A DNA stretch of 32,000 bases from Mycolicibacterium smegmatis (GCF_001457595.1 NZ_LN831039.1:6420001-6452000), one strand, 5' to 3'. Counted from the stretch's first letter, positions 7,767 through 22,074 are shown. The notes: a model not told the origin generated them from the letters alone. Translations and numbers: made by a program.

Positions 7767-7774
7767 CTCTCGTG

Positions 7775-7847
7775 TGCGCCCGAAGGGATTCGAACCCCTA
7801 ACCTTCTGATCCGTAGTCAGATGCTCTATCCGTTGAGCTACGGGCGC
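7775..7847 (-). tRNA. tRNA-Arg (anticodon ACG)
   Basis: Hand-folded 73-nt cloverleaf. Acceptor GCGCCCG/CGGGCGC, D arm GCTC-AACGGATA-GAGC, anticodon arm TCTGA-CTACGGA-TCAGA, T arm AGGGG-TTCGAAT-CCCTT, discriminator A. CCA is not encoded. Confidence 0.95.
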
Positions 7848-7884
7848 TTGGCTATTCAGTTATACACGGTTGACGAATCAACCC

Positions 7885-7976
7885 TGGCGGAGGCGAGAGG
7901 ATTTGAACCTCCGGTCCCCGGTAAGGGGGACAACTCATTAGCAGTGAGTCCCATTCGGCCGCTCTGGCACGCCTCC
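7885..7976 (-). tRNA. tRNA-Ser (anticodon GCU), class II with a long variable arm, CCA encoded
   Basis: Acceptor GGAGGCG/CGCCTCC, anticodon arm ACTCA-CTGCTAA-TGAGT, T loop GGTTCAAATCC, discriminator G followed by a genomic CCA (7885-7887). Confidence 0.95.
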
Positions 7977-9148: not shown

Positions 9149-9618
9149 CCGACGCACGGGGCACGTTCGAAGCATTCAAGAACCGCGACGGCGAGATCCC
9201 TGACGCCGAACTCGACGCCTTCTGGGCACTGCTACGCCCCGCCGGCATCGACTTCATGCTCGGTGAGTGGAAGGGCGGCGAGTTCTACACCGGCCACAAG
9301 GCCAACGGTTTCATGAAGAAGCTCAACTGGTTCGGCAAGACCTTCGTCTCGGCGTCGGAGGCCAAGCCACTGGTGTGCCTGGACGCCGACGGCAACAAGT
9401 TCTCCAACACCGAGGCCATGGGCGGCGAGGCCAGCCTGTGGCTCGAGGAGTTCCGCGGCGAGGTGACCGCGTCGATGGTCTACGACGGGCGTCCCGTGCA
9501 CGATCACTTCAAGGTCGTCGACGACAACGCCGTCATCGGCATCATGAACGGCAAGGGTGCGCTCGATCTCAGCTCGGGAACGCCGCGGCATCTGTACTTC
9601 TACCTGGAGCGGATCTGA
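9145..9618 (+). CDS. GXWXG / DUF4334 domain protein
   Basis: TTG start overlaps the hisC2 stop (cTTGAcc), with GGAG 7 nt upstream. GEWKG (GXWXG) motif. C-terminal VYDGRPVHDHFKVVDDNAVIGIMNGKG...YFYLER matches the DUF4334 pattern. Confidence 0.8.
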   Translation: MTDARGTFEAFKNRDGEIPDAELDAFWALLRPAGIDFMLGEWKGGEFYTGHKANGFMKKLNWFGKTFVSASEAKPLVCLDADGNKFSNTEAMGGEASLWLEEFRGEVTASMVYDGRPVHDHFKVVDDNAVIGIMNGKGALDLSSGTPRHLYFYLERI

Positions 9619-9620
9619 CC

Positions 9621-10436
9621 ATGGCTGACACGTACGAGTCGGTGACCGTCGAGGTCAAAGACCATGTCGCACAGGTGACCCTGATCGGGCCCGGCAAGGG
9701 CAACGCGATGGGGCCCGCGTTCTGGGAAGAGATGCCCGACGTGTTCGGCACCCTCGACGACGATCCCGACGTACGCGCCATCGTGCTGACCGGCTCCGGC
9801 AAGAACTTCAGCTACGGCCTGGACCTGCCCGCCATGGGCGCCTCGCTGCCCGCCCTGGACGCGGGCGCGAAGTCACGCTCCGACTTCCACAAGCGCCTGC
9901 AGAAGATGCAGGGCGCCATCACCGCGGTCGCCGACTGCCGCACGCCCACCATCGCATCGGTGCACGGCTGGTGCATCGGCGGCGGCGTGGACCTCATCAG
10001 CGCCGTGGACATCCGTTACGCGAGCGCCGACGCCAAGTTCTCGGTGCGTGAGGTCAAGCTCGCGATCGTCGCCGACGTGGGCAGCCTCGCGCGTCTGCCG
10101 CTGATCCTCAGCGACGGACATCTGCGCGAATTGGCGCTCACCGGCAAGGACATCGACGCCGCACGGGCCGAGAAGATCGGTCTGGTCAACGACGTCTACG
10201 ACGACGCCGAGGCCTCGCTGGCCGCCGCGCACGCCACGGCCGCCGAGATCGCCGCCAACCCGCCGCTGACGGTCGCAGGCGTCAAGGACGTGCTCGACGC
10301 GCAGCGCACCGCGCAGGTGGCCGAGAGCCTGCGGTTCGTCGCGGCCTGGAACTCGGCGTTCCTGCCGTCGAAGGACCTCGCCGAGGCGGTGACGGCGATG
10401 TTCGAAAAGCGCAGGCCCGAGTTCACCGGCGAGTAG
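9621..10436 (+). CDS. echA21: Enoyl-CoA hydratase/isomerase (crotonase) family, Rv3774 EchA21-like
   Basis: I trimmed the listed ORF to the ATG at 9621 (MADTYESVTVEVKDHVAQVTL), 2 nt after the preceding stop. Crotonase motifs GSGKNFSYGLDL and HGWCIGGGVDL. 271 aa. Confidence 0.88.
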   Translation: MADTYESVTVEVKDHVAQVTLIGPGKGNAMGPAFWEEMPDVFGTLDDDPDVRAIVLTGSGKNFSYGLDLPAMGASLPALDAGAKSRSDFHKRLQKMQGAITAVADCRTPTIASVHGWCIGGGVDLISAVDIRYASADAKFSVREVKLAIVADVGSLARLPLILSDGHLRELALTGKDIDAARAEKIGLVNDVYDDAEASLAAAHATAAEIAANPPLTVAGVKDVLDAQRTAQVAESLRFVAAWNSAFLPSKDLAEAVTAMFEKRRPEFTGE

Positions 10437-10500
10437 CACCCCCTCAGCGAAACCCGCTGGCCCGCAGAGCCTGTCGAAAACGGCCTGCGACGGCCTCCGC

Positions 10501-10523
10501 CGGCAAAGCTGCCGACTTTGCCG
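10501..10523 (+). terminator. 8-bp stem hairpin about 65 nt downstream of echA21 (weak terminator candidate)
   Basis: cggcaaag ctgccga ctttgccg. No U-tract follows. Confidence 0.25.
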
Positions 10524-10596
10524 CGCCGTCGCGTCCCGACGATTTCGGCTCCGCAGGTTTGGTTTTCGGCGATCGCGGCAATTCCCGCATGCGGCA

Positions 10597-11358
10597 ATGG
10601 CGCCACGGATTCGCTGTCGAGCTTTGGGGGTCGGGTCGGTGTTCAAGAGCACGCTTTCACGTTTCATTCCCGCGGTGTCCGCGGCGCTGTTGACCGCGGG
10701 CCTGGTCCCCGGTACGGCGGGCACCGCCAACGCCGAACCGCCGATCGAGGGCGCGGCGCCACCGTGCCCGGATGTCGAGGTGGTGTTCGCGCGCGGCACG
10801 TTCGAGCCGCCGGGTGTGGGGTTCGTCGGGCAAGCGTTCGTCGATGCGCTGCGCGGCAGGCTGGGCGACAAGAGCGTGGACGTGTACGCGGTGAATTACC
10901 CTGCGTCGCTTGACTTCCAGCGCGCAGCGGACGGAATCGTCGACGCCAGCCGCAAGGTCGAGCAGACCGCGGCGACGTGCCCGTCGACCAAGACCGTCAT
11001 CGGCGGTTTCTCGCAGGGCGCCGCGGTGGCCGCCTACCTGACGGCCGACTCCGTGCCCGCGAATTTCGTACTGCCCGACGGGATCACGGGGCCCATGCCC
11101 GACGACGTGGCCAAGCACGTCACCGCGGTGACGCTGTTCGGGAAACCCTCCAACGGGTTCATCAACACCGTGCAGTCCACGGCGCCGCCCATCAACATCG
11201 GGCACCTGTACACCGACAAGACCGTCGACCTGTGCATCGAGACGGACCCCGTGTGCTCGCCCACCGGCAGCGACGGGGCCAGCCACAACCTGTACGCGAC
11301 CAACGGCATGGTCCAACAGGCCGCCGACTACGTCGCCGCGCGAGTCCTGCCGCAGTGA
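10597..11358 (+). CDS. Secreted cutinase-family serine esterase
   Basis: Signal peptide (SAALLTAGLVPGTAGTANA). CPDVEVVFARGTFEPPGVG, nucleophile elbow GFSQG, and C-terminal DLC...D...C....SH..Y. The start may be the in-frame GTG at 10639. Confidence 0.85.
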   Translation: MAPRIRCRALGVGSVFKSTLSRFIPAVSAALLTAGLVPGTAGTANAEPPIEGAAPPCPDVEVVFARGTFEPPGVGFVGQAFVDALRGRLGDKSVDVYAVNYPASLDFQRAADGIVDASRKVEQTAATCPSTKTVIGGFSQGAAVAAYLTADSVPANFVLPDGITGPMPDDVAKHVTAVTLFGKPSNGFINTVQSTAPPINIGHLYTDKTVDLCIETDPVCSPTGSDGASHNLYATNGMVQQAADYVAARVLPQ

Positions 11359-11639
11359 GTGCGGGAGGCACCCCAGAAGCGTGATCTGGCGGGTTTCGGA
11401 TACCGAGTTGAGCTGCGGGTTCTGCAGCCGCAGCGGTGACATGTCCGTGAGGTGAAGGCAGGCAGGTGCCGTTCGGGGCAGGAGGCTAAGCGGGACTGGA
11501 CGCCGGGTTGCCGCATTCGTTTCTCGAAAGGCTCGACATTTTCTGAAAGCTCGCTGTGAATCTTGCGGATATGGTGCGCCGTACACCTCTGGTCATTCGT
11601 CCAAAGGCGAGTTCGGCTGTCGGGAAGGCAGGGACGACG

Positions 11640-11909
11640 ATGAGAACACTGATGGTGGGGTTGGCGACCGCCGCGGGTCTGATGCTGGGTACCGCGGGTG
11701 TTGCTGCGGCCGACGACGTCATCGTCTACGACGGTGCGACGGGAATCCCGTGGAGCTGGCCGACCGAGGGCGCATGCATATCCGACGGTCCGGACATGCA
11801 CCTGGAGAACGTGGGCGAGGACAACCTCTACCAGTACTGGTACTGCCTCCAGCACGACGACGGACTGTGGTACCTGCACAACAGCGACCAGCCGACCCAC
11901 GAGGAGTGA
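11640..11909 (+). CDS. Small secreted protein, 89 aa, two Cys in the mature part
   Basis: I trimmed the ORF to the ATG at 11640 (MRTLMVGLATAAGLMLGTAGVAAA signal peptide), preceded by gggaaggcaggga. The mature part is Trp/Tyr-rich and belongs to no family I recognise. Confidence 0.6.
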   Translation: MRTLMVGLATAAGLMLGTAGVAAADDVIVYDGATGIPWSWPTEGACISDGPDMHLENVGEDNLYQYWYCLQHDDGLWYLHNSDQPTHEE

Positions 11910-11982
11910 CCCCGAGCGACCACTTGATCCCGAGGGGCCACAACGCCCGAATTCTCACGGTGGCGAGCGCTGTAGTACCTGA

Positions 11983-12879
11983 TCAGAGATGAGCGCGGTA
12001 GGCGCTGGGTGTGACACCGACGCGTTGCTTGAATGTTGTTGCAAAATGGCTCGGACTGGAAAACCCTACTGTGAAGCTGATTTCGGTCATCGTCAAGGCT
12101 GTGCTCGCCAGCAGAGCCTTCGCGCGTTTGATCCGTTGGTCCAGAACGAACTGATACAGCGTGGTGTGAAACGCCTGAGCAAAAGCCGGCCGAAAGTCCC
12201 GGACGTTCATACCGACGATGTTGGCGGCGGTTCTCAGATCAATGCGTTCGTCAAGACTGTCGTGCAGAAACTCCACGAGTCGTCGCTGTTGACCTTGGTC
12301 GAGCATCTGCACACTCTTGCCGTCCGGAGACGGCGCTTCACCGTAGCGGTCCCGGATGTGCAGACGCAGCCCTTCGGCTATCGAGTCTCGAAGCAGGCGC
12401 GATAGAACATCATCACGCGCCGCCAGATCTGCGATCCTGTCGACCATGTTGTGCAACAAGGGATCCTGACGGTCGGCAACAGGACGCAAGGTCGCGCCTC
12501 CCACCGACGGGGCCGGCAGCGTCAGCTGAGCGAATTCAAACGCGGCGTTGCGCACCAACGCTGCTGACGAGAGCTCGGCGGGGATCACCCACACGTTGCC
12601 GTCTCGGGGTGTCATGCGGCCCGCTGATCCACCCTCGAACTGAAATTCTTTCGAGGACGCCCGCCCTCTGCGCCAGACCAAAATGGTGTGCTGCTTCCGC
12701 GAGAACGACCAGTCGACCGACTCTGCCATTCGCTGAGTGACGAAGCTGAATTCTACACTGAGGACCGTTATGTCGCGGCTGTGAAGGGAAACGCGGGTTT
12801 GGTCGGTGTGCTTGCTTTCGACTGGTTTCTCAGCTGTGGGTGCCTGCCCGTCACTTTCACCGCCCATACCACGCGACAC
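11983..12879 (-). CDS. AraC/XylS-family transcriptional regulator
   Basis: The C-terminal double HTH (LRTAANIVGMNVRDFRPAFAQAFHTTLYQFVLDQRIKRAKALLASTALTMTEISFTVGFSSPSHFATTFKQRVGVTPSAYR) is canonical AraC. 16 of the last 41 codons end in A/T, against 4 of the first 41 codons of the core gene at 7123. The start is uncertain (M51 at 12729 is possible). Confidence 0.85.
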   Translation of the reverse strand: MSRGMGGESDGQAPTAEKPVESKHTDQTRVSLHSRDITVLSVEFSFVTQRMAESVDWSFSRKQHTILVWRRGRASSKEFQFEGGSAGRMTPRDGNVWVIPAELSSAALVRNAAFEFAQLTLPAPSVGGATLRPVADRQDPLLHNMVDRIADLAARDDVLSRLLRDSIAEGLRLHIRDRYGEAPSPDGKSVQMLDQGQQRRLVEFLHDSLDERIDLRTAANIVGMNVRDFRPAFAQAFHTTLYQFVLDQRIKRAKALLASTALTMTEISFTVGFSSPSHFATTFKQRVGVTPSAYRAHL

Positions 12880-13091
12880 TAGCTGAACTGCCGACAGCGA
12901 AACGGTGTCCGCACAGGATCTCGCAATCGCATGTCAGTTTTTCGAAAGCCGGCTGATAACCCGCTGCGTACCGTCTGTGCGCAGATACACGTGGCAACAC
13001 CACCACGCGAAGAGGGAGTGCTGCGGCAGCAACGACCAACTCGACCGGAGTTGTGGAAGCACGCCGAGCATGGCATGTGGAGGGAAAATTG

Positions 13092-14000
13092 GTGCGGAGG
13101 CTCGTAACGGTTCTCATCGGACTCGCAGCGTTGGTGCTGATGTCGGCATGCGGTTCCGGGTCCTCGAGTTCACCCACAGCCGGCGGTTCGGATAAGTCGG
13201 CGAAACCGGGAGCAGTTTCGAATCCGGCCTCGAATGCGCAGTACTGCGCCCAGAATCGCGACCCGAGGTGCCCGAAGGGCAGCTATCACGGCACCCACGT
13301 CCTTCTCACGACCGCCGGTGGTTACTGGGATGCCAGCGGCAACCCGATCGACGGCGGGCCGATGGGCGCTGACGGGTCCACCGGCAATAACCACACCCAG
13401 GAGTACTGCGCGCGCAACGAGGATCCCGGTTGCCCGATGGGCAGCTACGTCGCCCCCGACGCCATCAAGAACCCCGACGGCAGCCCCAGCTACGTTGTCT
13501 GCGAAGGCACCATCTGCACCAACCCCAACCACGGGGCTGCGGATCCTGGCGGCTTCTGGGATGCCAACGGCAACCCGATCGACGGCGGGCCGATGGGCGC
13601 TGACGGGTCCACCGGCAATAACCACACCCAGGAGTACTGCGCGCGCAACGAGGATCCCGGTTGCCCGATGGGCAGCTACGTCGCCCCCGACGCCATCAAG
13701 AACCCCGACGGCAGCCCGAGCTACGTTGTCTGCGAAGGCACCATCTGCACCAACCCCAACCACGGCGCCGCAGACCCAGACGGCGACACCCCAGCGTCGG
13801 ACGAAGTCACGGGAGCCCCCGACGACGATCCTCCTGCTATCACTCCCGCGCCAGATACCGATCCTGGCGAGAATTCTCCGCGCGATGCGCAGACACCAGA
13901 CCAGCCGGCGTTACCCGAACAGCAGCCGGATGATGGTGACGCCTTCGATCCGGGATCGGTAGACGGCCCGGGCGACGAGCCGAATGTAGACGAACCGTGA
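13092..14000 (+). CDS. Lipoprotein with tandem 77-aa four-Cys repeats and an acidic Pro/Asp-rich tail (unknown family)
   Basis: GTG 13092 is preceded by ggaggg with an 8-nt spacer (alternative GTG at 13053). Signal peptide VRRLVTVLIGLAALVLMSAC has a lipobox Cys at 13149-13151. It contains two near-identical repeats plus one degenerate partial copy. The tail reads DPDGDTPASDEVTGAPDDDPPAITPAPDTDPGEN... Confidence 0.75.
   Translation: MRRLVTVLIGLAALVLMSACGSGSSSSPTAGGSDKSAKPGAVSNPASNAQYCAQNRDPRCPKGSYHGTHVLLTTAGGYWDASGNPIDGGPMGADGSTGNNHTQEYCARNEDPGCPMGSYVAPDAIKNPDGSPSYVVCEGTICTNPNHGAADPGGFWDANGNPIDGGPMGADGSTGNNHTQEYCARNEDPGCPMGSYVAPDAIKNPDGSPSYVVCEGTICTNPNHGAADPDGDTPASDEVTGAPDDDPPAITPAPDTDPGENSPRDAQTPDQPALPEQQPDDGDAFDPGSVDGPGDEPNVDEP
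13326..13787 (+). repeat. Tandem direct duplication, 2 x 231 bp, in frame (77 aa each)
   Basis: By hand alignment, copy 1 (13326-13556) and copy 2 (13557-13787) differ at 2 positions over the first 209 nt, g/a at 13336/13567 (Ser to Asn) and c/g at 13487/13718 (silent). They then diverge in the last ~22 nt. A diverged partial copy of the YC..N.DP.CP.GSY segment lies at 13239-13289. Confidence 0.95.
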
Positions 14001-14899
14001 CCGGGGGAGTCTATGCGCCCGTGCCTCCCGGCGTCCCGGCGCCGACGCCGACGCCGGTCAAGCCGCGCCGACGGATACTGCGTCGTCTGCTCATCACCAG
14101 CCTGGGCCTCGCAACAGTGCTCGCGGTGGCATTCGTCGCATTCGTGTTCTGGCCGAATCCCACTGTGCCAGCAGACCAACCGAACATGACACAGGTGATG
14201 ACCGGCACCGACAATGACTGGTTGTCGTTCGACGACTTCGTGCCGGGCACGGCGATTGCCGCCGACGGTTCCGACAACGACGAGTACGAGTGCACGCTGG
14301 GGTTCCTCGGACGCGACAGTTCCGGCACGCCGATCGGCTTCACCGCCGGCCACTGCGATCGCCCCGGCGACGATTCGCCACATTTCACCCGCAAGGCTGA
14401 CGAAGACACCCCCGTGGAACTCGGCCGATTCACCACCGTCCAGACCGCCGACACGCCGGACAAAGTCGTGAAGACCGGACCCGACGGGTGGTCGGACTTC
14501 GCGGTGATCGAAATCGACCCGTCGCTGACCGACTCAGCAGAAGACAATGCACGGATCGCGGGGGTGTATCGGGTGACCAAGGTGCTCGATTACGAGTACC
14601 TTCTGAACAACAACGTGACCTTGTGCAAGTTCGGATTTGTCAGCGGCGAAACCTGCGGCAAGGTGATCGGGCACGACAACCTCACCGTGGAAGCCGAACT
14701 GTATTCCGCCTCAGGGGATTCAGGCTCACCTGCATACGTCAAATTCGGCAACGACGAAGTCGCCGCCGTCGGCATCTTGCGAGGGTCACCGGAAGGTGAG
14801 GACAACATCACCGAGTTCTCCCTCCTCGCTCCGATACTCGAAGCGACGAGCTCATCCCTGTTCTGTGACGATCCGACCTGCCGCGGAAACGGATCGTAG
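13997..14899 (+). CDS. Membrane-anchored S1-family (streptogrisin / alpha-lytic-protease-like) serine protease
   Basis: GTG start overlaps the lipoprotein stop (GTGA at 13997-14000). Pro-rich N-terminus, RRRILRR plus TM helix LLITSLGLATVLAVAFVAFVFW. CTLGF...FTAGHC (His119, codon 14351-14353), DFAVIE (Asp167), GDSGSP (Ser242, codon 14720-14722). Paired Cys occur as in S1E enzymes. Confidence 0.85.
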   Translation: MTGGVYAPVPPGVPAPTPTPVKPRRRILRRLLITSLGLATVLAVAFVAFVFWPNPTVPADQPNMTQVMTGTDNDWLSFDDFVPGTAIAADGSDNDEYECTLGFLGRDSSGTPIGFTAGHCDRPGDDSPHFTRKADEDTPVELGRFTTVQTADTPDKVVKTGPDGWSDFAVIEIDPSLTDSAEDNARIAGVYRVTKVLDYEYLLNNNVTLCKFGFVSGETCGKVIGHDNLTVEAELYSASGDSGSPAYVKFGNDEVAAVGILRGSPEGEDNITEFSLLAPILEATSSSLFCDDPTCRGNGS

Positions 14900-15098
14900 G
14901 GAACTGCGGGACGAGACGGGTTGGTCTCAGCGGAGTAAGTCCCGTGCCATATGTCTATCCCACCGTGGGATCCGAAGGACCAGTCACGCGGCGACACGCC
15001 GACACAGCGCCGGACTGATCCCCGGGGAGCTGGGTCAAAAAGTGTCACTTTCAGCACCTGCCCGACGCCTGGTTCGACGCCGAAATGCTACTGATCAG

Positions 15099-15185
15099 CG
15101 GTGGCGGAGGGATTTGAACCCCCGGACGGTGTTAGCCGTCTCTCGCTTTCAAGGCGAGTGCATTAGGCCGCTCTGCCACGCCACC
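15099..15185 (-). tRNA. tRNA-Ser (anticodon UGA), class II, CCA not encoded
   Basis: 87 nt. Acceptor GGTGGCG/CGCCACC, anticodon arm CTCGC-CTTGAAA-GCGAG, long variable arm, T arm GGGGG-TTCAAAT-CCCTC, discriminator G. Its 3' end faces the AraC-lipoprotein-protease islet. Confidence 0.95.
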
Positions 15186-15203
15186 GCCGATAAGAGTACG
15201 GGA

Positions 15204-15680
15204 CTACACCCGGCCGATCTTGGCGGGCGGGGCTCCGTTCTTCAGCGCGGCGCTGATACGCCGGCAGTTCTCGCCCATCGCAGCGATCTGAGGACGCGAC
15301 AGGCGTCCCAGGAAGTGCGTGCGGACGCCCTGGCCGTAGGTCACCATCGCCTCGCGGACCGCGGCGCGGCCCTCGTCGGTGATCTTGGCGACCACGCCAC
15401 GTCCATCCTCCGGACTGGCGCCGCGCACCACGAAGTTCTGTACCTCCAACCGCCGGATCTGCCGGGTGACCCGGCTCGGGAGGGACATCAGCCGGTCGGC
15501 GAGGTCCCCCATCCTGGCCGAACCTGTCGGCGACTTGTCCAAATAGTCCAGCAGACGCACATCGTTCAGCGTCAGATGATGCTGGTCCACAAGCGACCGG
15601 TTCAGCGTCGCGTACAACCTCAGAGCCGAGTCGAGGTAGTTCTGCCACGACCTCTCCTCGGCGATATCCAGACCCGGCAT
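15204..15680 (-). CDS. MarR-family transcriptional regulator
   Basis: I trimmed the ORF to the ATG at 15680, with caGGAGac immediately upstream. 158 aa. The winged-helix core is LTLNDVRLLDYLDKSPTGSARMGDLADRLMSLPSRVTRQIRRLEVQNFVVR...DGRGVVAKITDEGR. Confidence 0.85.
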   Translation of the reverse strand: MPGLDIAEERSWQNYLDSALRLYATLNRSLVDQHHLTLNDVRLLDYLDKSPTGSARMGDLADRLMSLPSRVTRQIRRLEVQNFVVRGASPEDGRGVVAKITDEGRAAVREAMVTYGQGVRTHFLGRLSRPQIAAMGENCRRISAALKNGAPPAKIGRV

Positions 15681-19960: not shown

Positions 19961-20855
19961 GGTCGTCTGTGCGGTCGTGGTGACCCACCGGCGTCGAGAA
20001 CTGCTGGCCACGTCGCTGGACGCCGTCGTCTCGCAGGACCGCAAACCCGACCACCTGATCGTCGTCGACAACGACAACGACCCGCAGGTGCGGGAACTGG
20101 TGACCGGCCAGCCCGTCCCGTCCACATATCTGGGGTCGCGCCGAAACCTCGGCGGCGCAGGTGGTTTCGCGTTGGGCATGCTGCATGCGCTGGCTCTCGG
20201 CGCCGACTGGATCTGGCTGGCCGACGACGACGGCAGGCCTGCCGACACGACCGTGCTCTCGACATTGCTGTCCTGCGCGCACACGCACAGCCTGGCCGAG
20301 GTCTCCCCCATGGTGTGCAACCTCGACGATCCGCAGCGCCTCGCGTTCCCGCTGCGCCGCGGTCTGGTGTGGCGCCGGCTCACCTCGGAACTGCGTACCG
20401 ACAGCTCGTCGTCATCGGGGGATCTGCTGCCGGGCATCGCGTCGCTGTTCAACGGCGCCCTGTTCCGCGCCGACACGGTCGACGCCGTCGGCGTCCCGGA
20501 TCTGCGGCTGTTCGTACGCGGCGACGAGGTGGAGTTGCACCGTCGCCTGGTCCGTTCCGGGCTGCCGTTCGGAACGTGTTTGACCGCAAGCTATCTGCAT
20601 CCTTGTGGCACCGACGAGTTCAAACCGATCCTCGGCGGGCGCATGCACACGCAGTACCCGGACGACGAGACCAAGCGGTTCTTCACCTACCGCAACCGCG
20701 GCTACCTGCTGTCACAGCCGGGTCTGCGCAAGCTCCTGCCGCAGGAGTGGCTGCGCTTCGGCTGGTACTTTCTGGTGTCACGCCGCGACCTCGCCGGTCT
20801 GCGTGAGTGGATTCGGCTGCGGCGGTTGGGAAGACGCGAAAGGTTCCAGCGATGA
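19947..20855 (+). CDS. glfT1: GT2 galactofuranosyltransferase GlfT1 (Rv3782-like)
   Basis: GTG at 19947 overlaps the wzt 3' end by 14 nt. VCAVVVTHRRRELL, VVDNDNDP, WLADDDGRP. 302 aa. Synteny is wzt-glfT1-wzm. Confidence 0.9.
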   Translation: MTHTEVVCAVVVTHRRRELLATSLDAVVSQDRKPDHLIVVDNDNDPQVRELVTGQPVPSTYLGSRRNLGGAGGFALGMLHALALGADWIWLADDDGRPADTTVLSTLLSCAHTHSLAEVSPMVCNLDDPQRLAFPLRRGLVWRRLTSELRTDSSSSSGDLLPGIASLFNGALFRADTVDAVGVPDLRLFVRGDEVELHRRLVRSGLPFGTCLTASYLHPCGTDEFKPILGGRMHTQYPDDETKRFFTYRNRGYLLSQPGLRKLLPQEWLRFGWYFLVSRRDLAGLREWIRLRRLGRRERFQR

Positions 20856-21682
20856 CGTTCACCGACGCGGCGGCGCAGTCGAAGACCATGGCCAGAGCCC
20901 GCCGCGACCTGGTCGAGGGTTTCGCCAAACGTGAACTGTGGGCCCACCTGGGCTGGCAGGACATCAAGCAGCGCTACCGCCGCAGCGTGCTCGGACCGTT
21001 CTGGATCACCATCGCCACCGGCGCGACCGCCGTGGCGATGGGCGTGCTGTACTCCAAGCTGTTCAAGCTCGAACTGTCCGAGCATCTGCCGTATGTGACG
21101 CTGGGCCTGATCATCTGGAACCTGATCAACGCGTCGATCCTCGAAGGCGCCGAGGTGTTCATCGCCAACGAGGGTCTGATCAAACAGCTTCCGACGCCGT
21201 TGAGCGTGCACGTCTACCGGCTGGTGTGGCGGCAGATCATCCTGTTCGCCCACAACATCATCATCTTCGTGATCATCGCGATCATCTATCCCAAACCGTG
21301 GACGTGGACCGATCTCGCGGTCATCCCGGCACTCGGGCTCATCATGCTCAACATGGTTTGGGTCGCACTGTGTTTCGGCATCCTGGCCACCCGCTACCGC
21401 GACATCGGGCCGCTGCTCGCCAGCGTCGTGCAGCTGCTGTTCTTCATGACGCCGATCATCTGGAACGAGTCGACGCTGCAGCAGCAGGGTGCGGGCTCGT
21501 GGGCCAAGATCGTCGAGATCAACCCGCTGCTGCACTATCTGGACATCGTGCGTGCTCCGCTGCTCGGCGCCGATCAGGAACTTCGGCACTGGCTGGTGGT
21601 CCTGGCGTTCACGGTGATCGGCTGGACGTTCGCGGCTTTCGCGATGCGCCAGTACCGCGGCCGCGTGCCCTACTGGGTCTGA
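20852..21682 (+). CDS. wzm: ABC-2 type transporter permease Wzm/RfbD (Rv3783-like)
   Basis: ATG at 20852 overlaps the glfT1 stop (ATGA). RELWAHLGWQDIKQRYRRSVLGPFW is the ABC-2 N-terminal signature. Six hydrophobic segments. 276 aa. Confidence 0.9.
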   Translation: MTFTDAAAQSKTMARARRDLVEGFAKRELWAHLGWQDIKQRYRRSVLGPFWITIATGATAVAMGVLYSKLFKLELSEHLPYVTLGLIIWNLINASILEGAEVFIANEGLIKQLPTPLSVHVYRLVWRQIILFAHNIIIFVIIAIIYPKPWTWTDLAVIPALGLIMLNMVWVALCFGILATRYRDIGPLLASVVQLLFFMTPIIWNESTLQQQGAGSWAKIVEINPLLHYLDIVRAPLLGADQELRHWLVVLAFTVIGWTFAAFAMRQYRGRVPYWV

Positions 21683-22074
21683 TCGAACGTGAAGAACCGC
21701 CCCGAGATCTCCTTCGGGGTGATGCGCACGTAGCGCCGTTTGGCCGGTGAGGTCCACAGCAGCAGTCCCGTCTGCTCGGCTTCGGCGATGTCCTCGGCGG
21801 TCTGCAGCAGTTCGGCGGTTCCGCGCACGATCACGCTCCAGCCGTCGGCGGCCGTGTGGGCGTCGGCCTCGAACAGCACGCGATCACTCATGATCGCGGT
21901 GATCAGCTTGGTGCCCTCGTTGGTGCGGAACAACACGGTGCGCTCCTGCACGGCGAAGTTCACCGGATAGATCTCCAGCCGTGTGCCGATGGTGGTGACG
22001 AACCGCCCGATCGGGACGCTCGCGAGCAGCCGCCAGCACTCGTTCTCGCTGAGCACTGACACCGGGCCGGCCAT
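21670..22074 (-). CDS. Pyridoxamine-5'-phosphate-oxidase-fold protein (PPOX / putative F420- or FMN-binding split barrel)
   Basis: 134 aa. LSENECWRLLASVPIGRFV...YPVNFAV.ERTVLFRT..GTKL pattern. The 3' end overlaps the wzm 3' end by 13 nt (convergent). Confidence 0.78.
   Translation of the reverse strand: MAGPVSVLSENECWRLLASVPIGRFVTTIGTRLEIYPVNFAVQERTVLFRTNEGTKLITAIMSDRVLFEADAHTAADGWSVIVRGTAELLQTAEDIAEAEQTGLLLWTSPAKRRYVRITPKEISGRFFTFDQTQ

Follow-up and report, generated by a model that had tools for sequence, protein, structure and literature searches.

Class II activators of the AraC/XylS family act at sites with a common layout, in which two repeats lie about two helical turns apart and the proximal repeat reaches the -35 region. 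Members such as AraC, RhaS, MelR and XylS carry a C-terminal dual helix-turn-helix (HTH) domain and are encoded divergently from their target operon. Here we describe a group of genes which resembles these systems in a 32,000-nucleotide stretch of Mycolicibacterium smegmatis DNA (GCF_001457595.1, NZ_LN831039.1:6420001-6452000; called the window throughout, with positions counted from its first letter). The group includes the gene of an AraC/XylS-family regulator, those of a lipoprotein and an S1-family serine protease transcribed divergently from it, and that of a small secreted protein, small89. We consider that this four-gene unit (11519-14899) is probably a small AraC-activated regulon of exported proteins located in the hypervariable DNA that follows the tRNA-Ser(UGA) gene.

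Other described systems also provide points of comparison. In operon-encoded protease/inhibitor pairs such as staphopain-staphostatin, and with multi-headed disulfide-rich inhibitors, a disulfide-rich exported protein is encoded beside a protease and co-transcribed with it. Genomic islands linked to tRNA genes are located at the tRNA 3' end, are atypical in composition and vary in content between strains or species. For the protease, the nearest named mycobacterial family is that of Rv1815 of M. tuberculosis, an exported S1-type protease of 221 aa whose serine protease activity has been demonstrated and which, after cleavage of a 27-aa signal peptide, is released into the culture filtrate (PMC13090312).

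Evidence for a regulon comes from a promoter architecture shared between transcription units. Motif discovery was carried out on 19 upstream regions of the gene set, using shared k-mers with up to two mismatches and comparison with shuffles. The 12-mer TTTTCTGAAAGC from the region upstream of small89 recurs in 11 of the 18 other upstream regions (shuffle maxima 5-6), as do 14-mers (11/18; shuffle maxima 5-8). There are only two matches with at most two mismatches in the entire window, where 0.36 are expected, and one falls in each of the relevant intergenic regions, 89 nt before small89 and 142 nt before the lipoprotein gene. In the 1.47 Mb of our 80 comparison loci (different Mycobacteriaceae species, fetched with the flanking class-V aminotransferase, AT5, as a probe) there are four matches with at most one mismatch, one of which is the small89 promoter of locus L025. 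The other three come from metagenome-assembled genomes, where they mark one homologous position at the beginning of the ADH gene (L033:12190, L047:12178 and L050:12262), and are probably coincidental.

An anchored alignment of 14 promoters shows that the motif is part of a larger arrangement: a distal box gTTTCtcGAAAgg is separated by 8-9 nt from the proximal box, which is followed after exactly 19 nt by a TANNNT sequence (TATGGT, TACGGT, TAGGTT or TACCGT). The architecture is thus one of two TTTC-N(1-2)-GAAA boxes about 20 bp apart, the proximal one ending 19 nt before a -10-like element, and at least 14 promoters, ranging from M. abscessus to M. smegmatis, have kept it. It is present in 10 small-protein promoters. 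The same spacing between box and TANNNT precedes the protease gene of M. mageritense and of L093, as well as the lipoprotein gene of M. abscessus and of the M. chelonae plasmid pMchErm55. Moreover, the M. smegmatis sequence preceding the lipoprotein gene, TTTTTCGAAAGCCGGCTGAT, is homologous to that preceding the protease gene in M. mageritense and L093, TTTTCTGAAAGCCGGCYGTG, where no lipoprotein gene intervenes. The same candidate promoter would therefore drive either the protease alone or the lipoprotein and protease together. Scans with consensus sigma-70 promoters and for terminators were uninformative in this GC-rich DNA. In the open-access literature we found no description of the TTTC-N-GAAA motif, of the regulon or of the protease-lipoprotein pairing, and no publication combining streptogrisin, Mycobacterium, lipoprotein and AraC. 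The positions of these and other features are listed in Table 1.

Table 1. Features of the four-gene unit and its tRNA flank, in window coordinates
Feature	Position	Strand	Basis or description
Candidate small89 promoter	11519-11575	+	distal box GTTTCTCGAAAGG 11519-11531; proximal box TTTTCTGAAAGC 11539-11550; 19 nt; TATGGT 11570-11575
small89 gene	11640-11909	+	gene call; 89-aa secreted protein; convergent with the AraC gene and immediately to its left
AraC/XylS-family regulator gene	11983-12867 (ORF, open reading frame, to 12879)	-	C-terminal dual HTH; PF12833 77.8 bits (cut-off 33.6), PF00165 50 bits (cut-off 26.6)
Candidate lipoprotein-protease promoter	12916-12974	+	in the divergent intergenic region; distal box 12916-12928; proximal box TTTTTCGAAAGC 12938-12949; 19 nt; TACCGT 12969-12974
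Lipoprotein gene (NCBI label 'mesocentin')	13092-14000	+	302 aa; lipobox, half-module and two 77-aa modules, acidic tail
Tandem duplication of one module	13337-13765	+	in frame, 231 bp (77 codons); TRF period 231, 1.9 copies, 99% matches
S1-family serine protease gene	13997-14899	+	300 aa; invariant triad; profile against PDB
Spacer, protease stop to tRNA 3' end	14900-15097	.	198 bp, without recognisable element
tRNA-Ser(UGA) gene (tga)	15098-15185	-	ARAGORN; Rfam 57.9 bits

The regulator is a true AraC/XylS member by its predicted DNA-binding domain. Like the class II activators, it is encoded divergently from its presumptive target operon, across an intergenic region of 212-224 bp. Unlike them, its N-terminal domain (~190 aa) matches no known sensor family, with no Pfam match and with PDB matches confined to the DNA-binding domain, and its targets would be exported proteins rather than a catabolic pathway. 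The divergence from a coupled lipoprotein-protease pair, noted in the sequence-only reading, is borne out by the open reading frames and by the GTGA overlap at 13997-14000, formed by the GTG at which the protease starts (13997-13999) and the TGA at which the lipoprotein stops (13998-14000). In more than ten loci, genes for full-length homologues of the regulator (41-61% identity) adjoin those of the lipoprotein, small89 or the protease, and this recurrence identifies the AraC gene as the hub of a recurring gene set. No regulator other than an AraC homologue recurs at these loci, and we therefore infer that it is the AraC protein that binds the boxes.

These features suggest the following scheme. 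AraC would bind as a dimer to the two boxes, which are candidate direct repeats separated by about two helical turns, with the proximal one overlapping the -35 region as is the case for class II activators. A cue perceived by the unclassified N-terminal domain would then switch on small89, the lipoprotein and the protease together through activation of two promoters, that of small89 and that of the translationally coupled lipoprotein-protease operon, and the regulator may also control its own expression from the shared divergent region. The products would be located outside the cytoplasmic membrane: a soluble disulfide protein of 6-7 kDa, a modular lipoprotein, tethered to the membrane, that displays an acidic tail and at least two modules stabilised by disulfides, and an S1E-like endopeptidase anchored in the membrane. 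That they are co-regulated and that the overlap is conserved is compatible with an action of the protease on or with small89 and the lipoprotein, without making it necessary.

A number of observations weigh against this scheme. The association of AraC with the boxes is drawn from their co-location, and the boxes could be an operator for a repressor or the site of a different factor. The distal box at 12916-12928 is degenerate (8/13 by eye). The M. abscessus small89 promoter carries the motif with no AraC gene in the fetched flank, and the AraC gene close to the L091 cluster specifies a protein only 33% identical to that of the window. The AraC proteins are also far less conserved (41-61% identity) than the protease and the small protein (76-84%), which makes strict orthology of the regulators uncertain.

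Within these limits, the unit is real and modestly novel, and the well-conserved, newly recognised cis-element is the most useful product of the analysis. On present evidence it reveals no new kind of mechanism. A more ambitious interpretation, which we regard as tentative, is that of a previously undescribed, Mycobacteriales-wide extracytoplasmic response regulon with modular, exchangeable cargo and two folds without a solved relative, in which small89 or the lipoprotein modules would modulate the protease or be processed by it at the cell surface. As M. smegmatis is the standard mycobacterial genetic model, a compact unit with such a sharply defined candidate operator is directly testable. 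It would also give a first regulatory context to two orphan exported families, that of small89 and the 'mesocentin' lipoproteins, which occur in M. abscessus, on M. chelonae plasmids and in Gordonia, Nocardia and Rhodococcus.

The AraC, lipoprotein and protease genes had been described in the sequence-only reading as a self-contained module. This view has to be revised: the small89 gene, located just outside the trio, shares the promoter signature and is a more constant neighbour of the protease gene than the lipoprotein gene. It belongs to the unit, which is consequently larger than first reported. Indeed small89 is the most constant neighbour of both the protease and the AraC genes, adjoining one or the other in M. 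chitae, M. mageritense, M. fortuitum and loci L013, L023, L025, L091, L093 and L094. The protein has a signal peptide ending in AAADD and two invariant cysteines, C46 and C69, 23 residues apart. A word index retrieved 18 homologues, all of ~85-100 aa, and a collection of 1.84 billion proteins yielded no more than 22 cluster representatives of the family, including two spurious repeats. No Pfam match was obtained for small89, and a Foldseek comparison of its model with PDB gave no fold match (best E = 1.3).

A possible domain fusion between small89 and the lipoprotein, through the C-terminus of Nocardia lipoprotein homologues, was considered and rejected (hhalign 5% probability; only ~4-7 bits with the small89 hidden Markov model, HMM). 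The last ~35 residues of the Nocardia single-module lipoproteins (P0117, P0120, P0125 and others) read EGAPCEGDGHWVHLEGGNAxHYGTEWLCxH. By eye, this ending shares with small89 the pattern C-x2-DG-x3-HLE-x10-W-x-C and the 23-residue cysteine spacing, a resemblance for which neither hhalign nor the HMM supports homology. In M. chitae a second paralogue of small89 precedes a Lactamase_B gene, and the same small89-Lactamase_B pairing is found in M. abscessus (L102).

The order in which the members of the gene set are combined varies, as does their location, which may be one of several chromosomal sites or a plasmid. Close orthologues of the protease (at least 64% identity) are found in eight distinct contexts. 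In the window, small89 and the lipoprotein-protease pair are on one strand and the AraC gene is on the other. In M. chitae and the metagenome loci L107-109 all four genes are in the same orientation, in the order small89, lipoprotein, protease and AraC, beside embB and with the same 4-nt overlap; identities between the M. chitae and window proteins are 84% for small89, 74% for the lipoprotein, 84% for the protease and 55% for AraC. Locus L091 has the order small89, lipoprotein, protease, and L110 the order lipoprotein, protease, AraC. M. mageritense and L093 each have the protease gene followed by AraC, with small89 on the opposite strand. In L094 the protease gene is divergent from a group on the other strand composed of a DUF4436 gene, two AraC genes, a 149-aa gene and small89, and in M. 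houstonense the protease gene is alone.

There are also several arrangements without the protease. The AraC gene precedes small89 in M. fortuitum and is associated with small89 in L013 and L023; in L025 it occurs with small89, a DUF4436 gene and that of a 150-aa secreted protein. In M. abscessus (MAB_1313/1314) it precedes the lipoprotein gene, while in pMchErm55 the lipoprotein gene is convergent with an AraC gene whose product shows 41% identity along its whole length. The lipoprotein gene occurs alone in Gordonia effusa and Hoyosella altamirensis. More distant protease relatives (26-41% identity) have none of AraC, lipoprotein or small89 as neighbours. The DUF4436 membrane protein and the ~150-aa secreted protein encoded with AraC and small89 (L025:19033-20390 and L094:2045-5264) may be further regulon cargo. 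In one of two M. chitae genomes an IS481-family transposase gene lies just downstream of the cluster AraC gene (L097:7862-8833); it is absent from the other (L098).

This recurrence bears directly on two alternative explanations. That the neighbourhood arose by chance, as a set of unrelated genes left behind in a recombination hotspot, would agree with the diverse and unrelated cargo carried by the same flank in other species. It is disfavoured, and we judge it highly improbable, given that the same families are associated with one another both on a plasmid and at chromosomal sites unrelated to each other, and that a conserved two-box promoter is common to their transcription units.

The second alternative is that the lipoprotein and the protease are a dedicated pair, with the cysteine-repeat lipoprotein as inhibitor, chaperone, sensor or substrate of the enzyme and the 4-nt overlap providing stoichiometric co-production at the membrane surface. 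The GTGA overlap is kept in M. smegmatis and M. chitae, the order lipoprotein-protease is found in four contexts, both products appear to be tethered to the same membrane face, and the tandem disulfide-rich modules recall multi-headed protease inhibitors in their general form. Those four contexts may nevertheless stem from a single fusion event. The lipoprotein gene is absent from the other four close-orthologue contexts (M. mageritense, L093, L094 and M. houstonense), and a protease neighbour is absent from all four lipoprotein loci checked outside the clade (M. abscessus, the M. chelonae plasmid, Gordonia and Hoyosella). The lipoprotein family, with at least 124 matches in six genera, greatly exceeds the protease clade in breadth (14 matches at 63% identity or more), and the distant protease relatives are never found near a lipoprotein gene. 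Strict co-occurrence, the hallmark of staphopain-staphostatin-type pairs, therefore fails here, and the sequence and fold searches with the lipoprotein and small89 found no resemblance to any family of inhibitors. As the lipoprotein gene adjoins the protease gene in no more than half of the protease contexts, and is common without it, the dedicated partnership suggested in the sequence-only reading appears improbable. As judged from their predicted products and distribution, the two are co-regulated cargo of the AraC regulon, each able to occur alone, and not an obligate enzyme-partner pair.

The two products were expected to face the cell envelope, and putative export or anchoring signals are indeed present in each. 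The protease begins with a short proline-rich cytoplasmic tail, the sequence KPRRRILRR and a 22-residue hydrophobic segment (~residues 31-52), which has no obvious cleavage site, is common to the close orthologues and is a predicted signal-anchor. Residues H119 (TAGHC), D167 and S242 (GDSGSP), together with the cysteine pairs C99/C120 and C210/C220, are invariant in an alignment with 20 homologues. Its affinity with streptogrisins, suggested earlier, is supported by a profile comparison with PDB, in which positions 73-257 give streptogrisin B (SGPB; E = 4.1e-11) and alpha-lytic protease (E = 2.9e-9) as the best matches. The Pfam Trypsin family PF00089 scores below its gathering threshold (13.2 vs 20.6 bits, E = 0.078); precomputed PF00089 or PF13365 matches exist for some of the homologues that are more distant. 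We therefore describe the protein as a predicted signal-anchored, S1E-like serine endopeptidase of the streptogrisin-like branch of family S1.

It has in common with streptogrisin B and alpha-lytic protease (MEROPS S1, S1E) the TAGHC...D...GDSG(S)P triad, a disulfide of the Cys42-Cys58 type and a catalytic domain of ~190 residues. In contrast to these enzymes, it appears to be anchored by a transmembrane (TM) segment rather than secreted, and it lacks their long N-terminal pro-domain: only ~30-40 residues separate the TM anchor from the first conserved column of the catalytic domain (~residue 83), leaving no large pro-region. It also differs from SGPB in its second disulfide, C210-C220, and in an unaligned C-terminal CDDPTC. 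The NCBIfam model of the Rv1815 family, NF051463, gives 56 bits (E = 3e-15), under its 175-bit cut-off, and the protein is thus, as judged from this score, a relative of that family and not a member; unlike Rv1815, it has 300 aa and a predicted signal-anchor. It adds a membrane-anchored relative to the few S1 proteases of mycobacteria, of which the studied member, Rv1815, affects intracellular survival. An identical protease product is encoded in the M. smegmatis complete genomes GCA_019930745.1 and GCA_022370375.1.

The lipoprotein is most likely translated from the GTG at 13092, which follows a GGAGGG ribosome-binding site and gives MRRLVTVLIGLAALVLMSAC, and not from 13053, as the 225-aa gene call in a second strain plus 77 aa matches the resulting length. 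Its lipobox, LMSAC, includes a cysteine (Cys20) that is at least 90% conserved across 120 homologues, where variants such as LSAC, LAGC, VAGC and ITAC are found, and is predicted to be lipidated. There follow a half-module with two cysteines, two 77-residue modules with four cysteines each and a 78-residue acidic, proline-rich tail. The module sequence is YCArNeDPgCPmGSY ... CEGTICTNPNHG, the modules are joined by a linker, WDanGnPidGGPmGADGSTGNN, and the invariant positions among the 120 homologues are YCA-N-DP-CP-GSY ... CEGT-CTNPNHG. An AlphaFold2 model built with these homologues predicts well-ordered modules (predicted local distance difference test, pLDDT, 86-96) and a disordered tail (<57). 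The repeat falls outside known families: there is no match in Pfam, NCBIfam or PDB, the best Foldseek result for the model against PDB being LRP2 at E = 6.3, with no fold match. Even at E up to 10, Pfam searches with the lipoprotein and small89 returned only noise (Atracotoxin at 0.01; New_glue on low-complexity regions). The lipoprotein homologues, which have one to four modules, are from Mycolicibacterium, Mycobacteroides, Gordonia, Hoyosella, Rhodococcus and Nocardia. Both the lipoprotein and small89 families are uncharacterised and are already in databases as hypothetical proteins or as 'mesocentin', a name which is an annotation label only.

The two complete modules of the window copy result from an in-frame tandem duplication. 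The copies at 13337-13534 and 13568-13765 are identical at all but 1 of 198 positions, and strains GCA_022370375.1 and SRR32024586 have exactly one module copy fewer, giving the 225-aa protein. The two-module gene is uncalled in GCA_019930745.1 (L001:8872-10000, equivalent to window 12868-13996); the one-module allele is called in GCA_022370375.1. In a homologue from Mycolicibacillus trivialis (P0089) the sub-motif CEGTICTNPNHGAGEDPE occurs alone in four repeats, which suggests that the four-cysteine module is composed of two disulfide loops, each of which can be repeated independently.

The sequence-only reading had placed the trio, without counterpart in the M. tuberculosis Rv3774-Rv3777 interval, against the 3' end of tRNA-Ser(UGA), and all the elements of its description are present. 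The tRNA gene is on the minus strand and its 3' end points leftwards into the islet; it is the sole match in an Rfam scan, and the 198-bp spacer contains no Rfam match, terminator-like site or repeat of the tRNA sequence. The AT5-ADH-MarR block is kept in 80 of the 80 species loci, and tRNA-Ser(UGA) lies beside it in 78, at 92-100% identity, the remaining two (L057 and L068) ending before the tRNA position. The next conserved gene, echA21, lies anywhere from 13 bp (L063 and L071) to more than 8 kb away from the tRNA 3' end. The trio itself is present at the tRNA flank in none of the 80. The segment is a recombination hotspot and part of a flexible gene pool, and tRNA-Ser(UGA) is thereby documented as such a hotspot across the Mycobacteriaceae.

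These observations raise the question of how the genes came to be there. An explanation compatible with the AraC-regulon reading, the two not being mutually exclusive, is that the islet was recently acquired horizontally by site-specific recombination at the tRNA 3' end, its low G+C content at third codon positions (GC3) being the signature of a donor. We regard this as possible but doubtful. The islet adjoins a tRNA 3' end at a site that is hypervariable among the 80 species and is atypical in composition, as are tRNA-linked genomic islands. In contrast to these, the window copy has no integrase gene, tRNA-derived direct repeat or other mobility gene between echA21 and the tRNA; no repeat of the tRNA 3' end was found within 9500-15400, at the far border or elsewhere, and there is a single tRNA-Ser(UGA) match in L001. 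Two relatives do carry partial tRNA-Ser(UGA) duplicates which are att-like and surround inserted DNA: one of 56 bp in L025 (18006-18061), 5 kb past the intact tRNA, and one of 79 bp in L018 (10117-10195), 1.4 kb past it. Elements therefore do integrate at tRNA-Ser(UGA) in these two other species. In L025 the AraC orthologue begins directly after the duplicate.

The M. houstonense flank (L012:13282-18246) likewise contains mobile-element genes together with the protease orthologue. The lone protease orthologue (82% identity), upstream of which the two-box motif is absent, is preceded there by genes for a truncated resolvase, HTH_17 and DUF4253 proteins, and a 712-aa protein whose N-terminus is PPE-like and which contains a Tox-REase-5 toxin domain. 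A phage origin is not supported, as tblastn searches with the protease and lipoprotein against 50,697 phage records gave no match. Among plasmids, the lipoprotein has one homologue, on pMchErm55, and the protease has only distant S1 relatives (29-34%). The latter are found on several mycobacterial, Rhodococcus and Tsukamurella plasmids, including the classic M. fortuitum plasmid pAL5000, where the gene is annotated as a 'hypothetical protein' (NC_001381.1 1574-2203). Identities to other species (74-84%) are close to those of the vertically inherited neighbours (81-91% for AT5), so that no recent donor is visible.

Codon composition is atypical, in agreement with the codon counts of the sequence-only reading. 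GC3 is 0.675 for the AraC gene, 0.769 for the lipoprotein gene and 0.777 for the protease gene, 3-6 standard deviations (sd) below the 21 other genes of the window (mean 0.874, sd 0.032, minimum 0.803). However, the lipoprotein and protease genes have a GC3 of 0.73-0.79 in every host examined, against 0.85-0.96 for the flanking core genes. As this low GC3 travels with the genes across hosts, it is no evidence of recent import into M. smegmatis and leaves any acquisition undated. Furthermore, small89 (GC3 0.84) and a cutinase gene (0.89) in the same variable segment are host-typical. Of the earlier suggestion of acquired DNA, then, the variable segment and its low GC3 stand, while classical integration at the tRNA and recent import do not; the route by which the gene set reached the tRNA flank is not recorded in the sequence.

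Two further features of the window are of interest for its layout and composition. A second tRNA pair, tRNA-Arg(ACG) and tRNA-Ser(GCU), is located at 7774-7976, 7 kb upstream and on the same strand. At 20500-22000, in a region of glycosyltransferase and ABC-2 transporter genes resembling Rv3782-3783, overall G+C drops to 0.632. GC3 remains at 0.85-0.90 there, and this dip therefore lies in codon positions 1 and 2.

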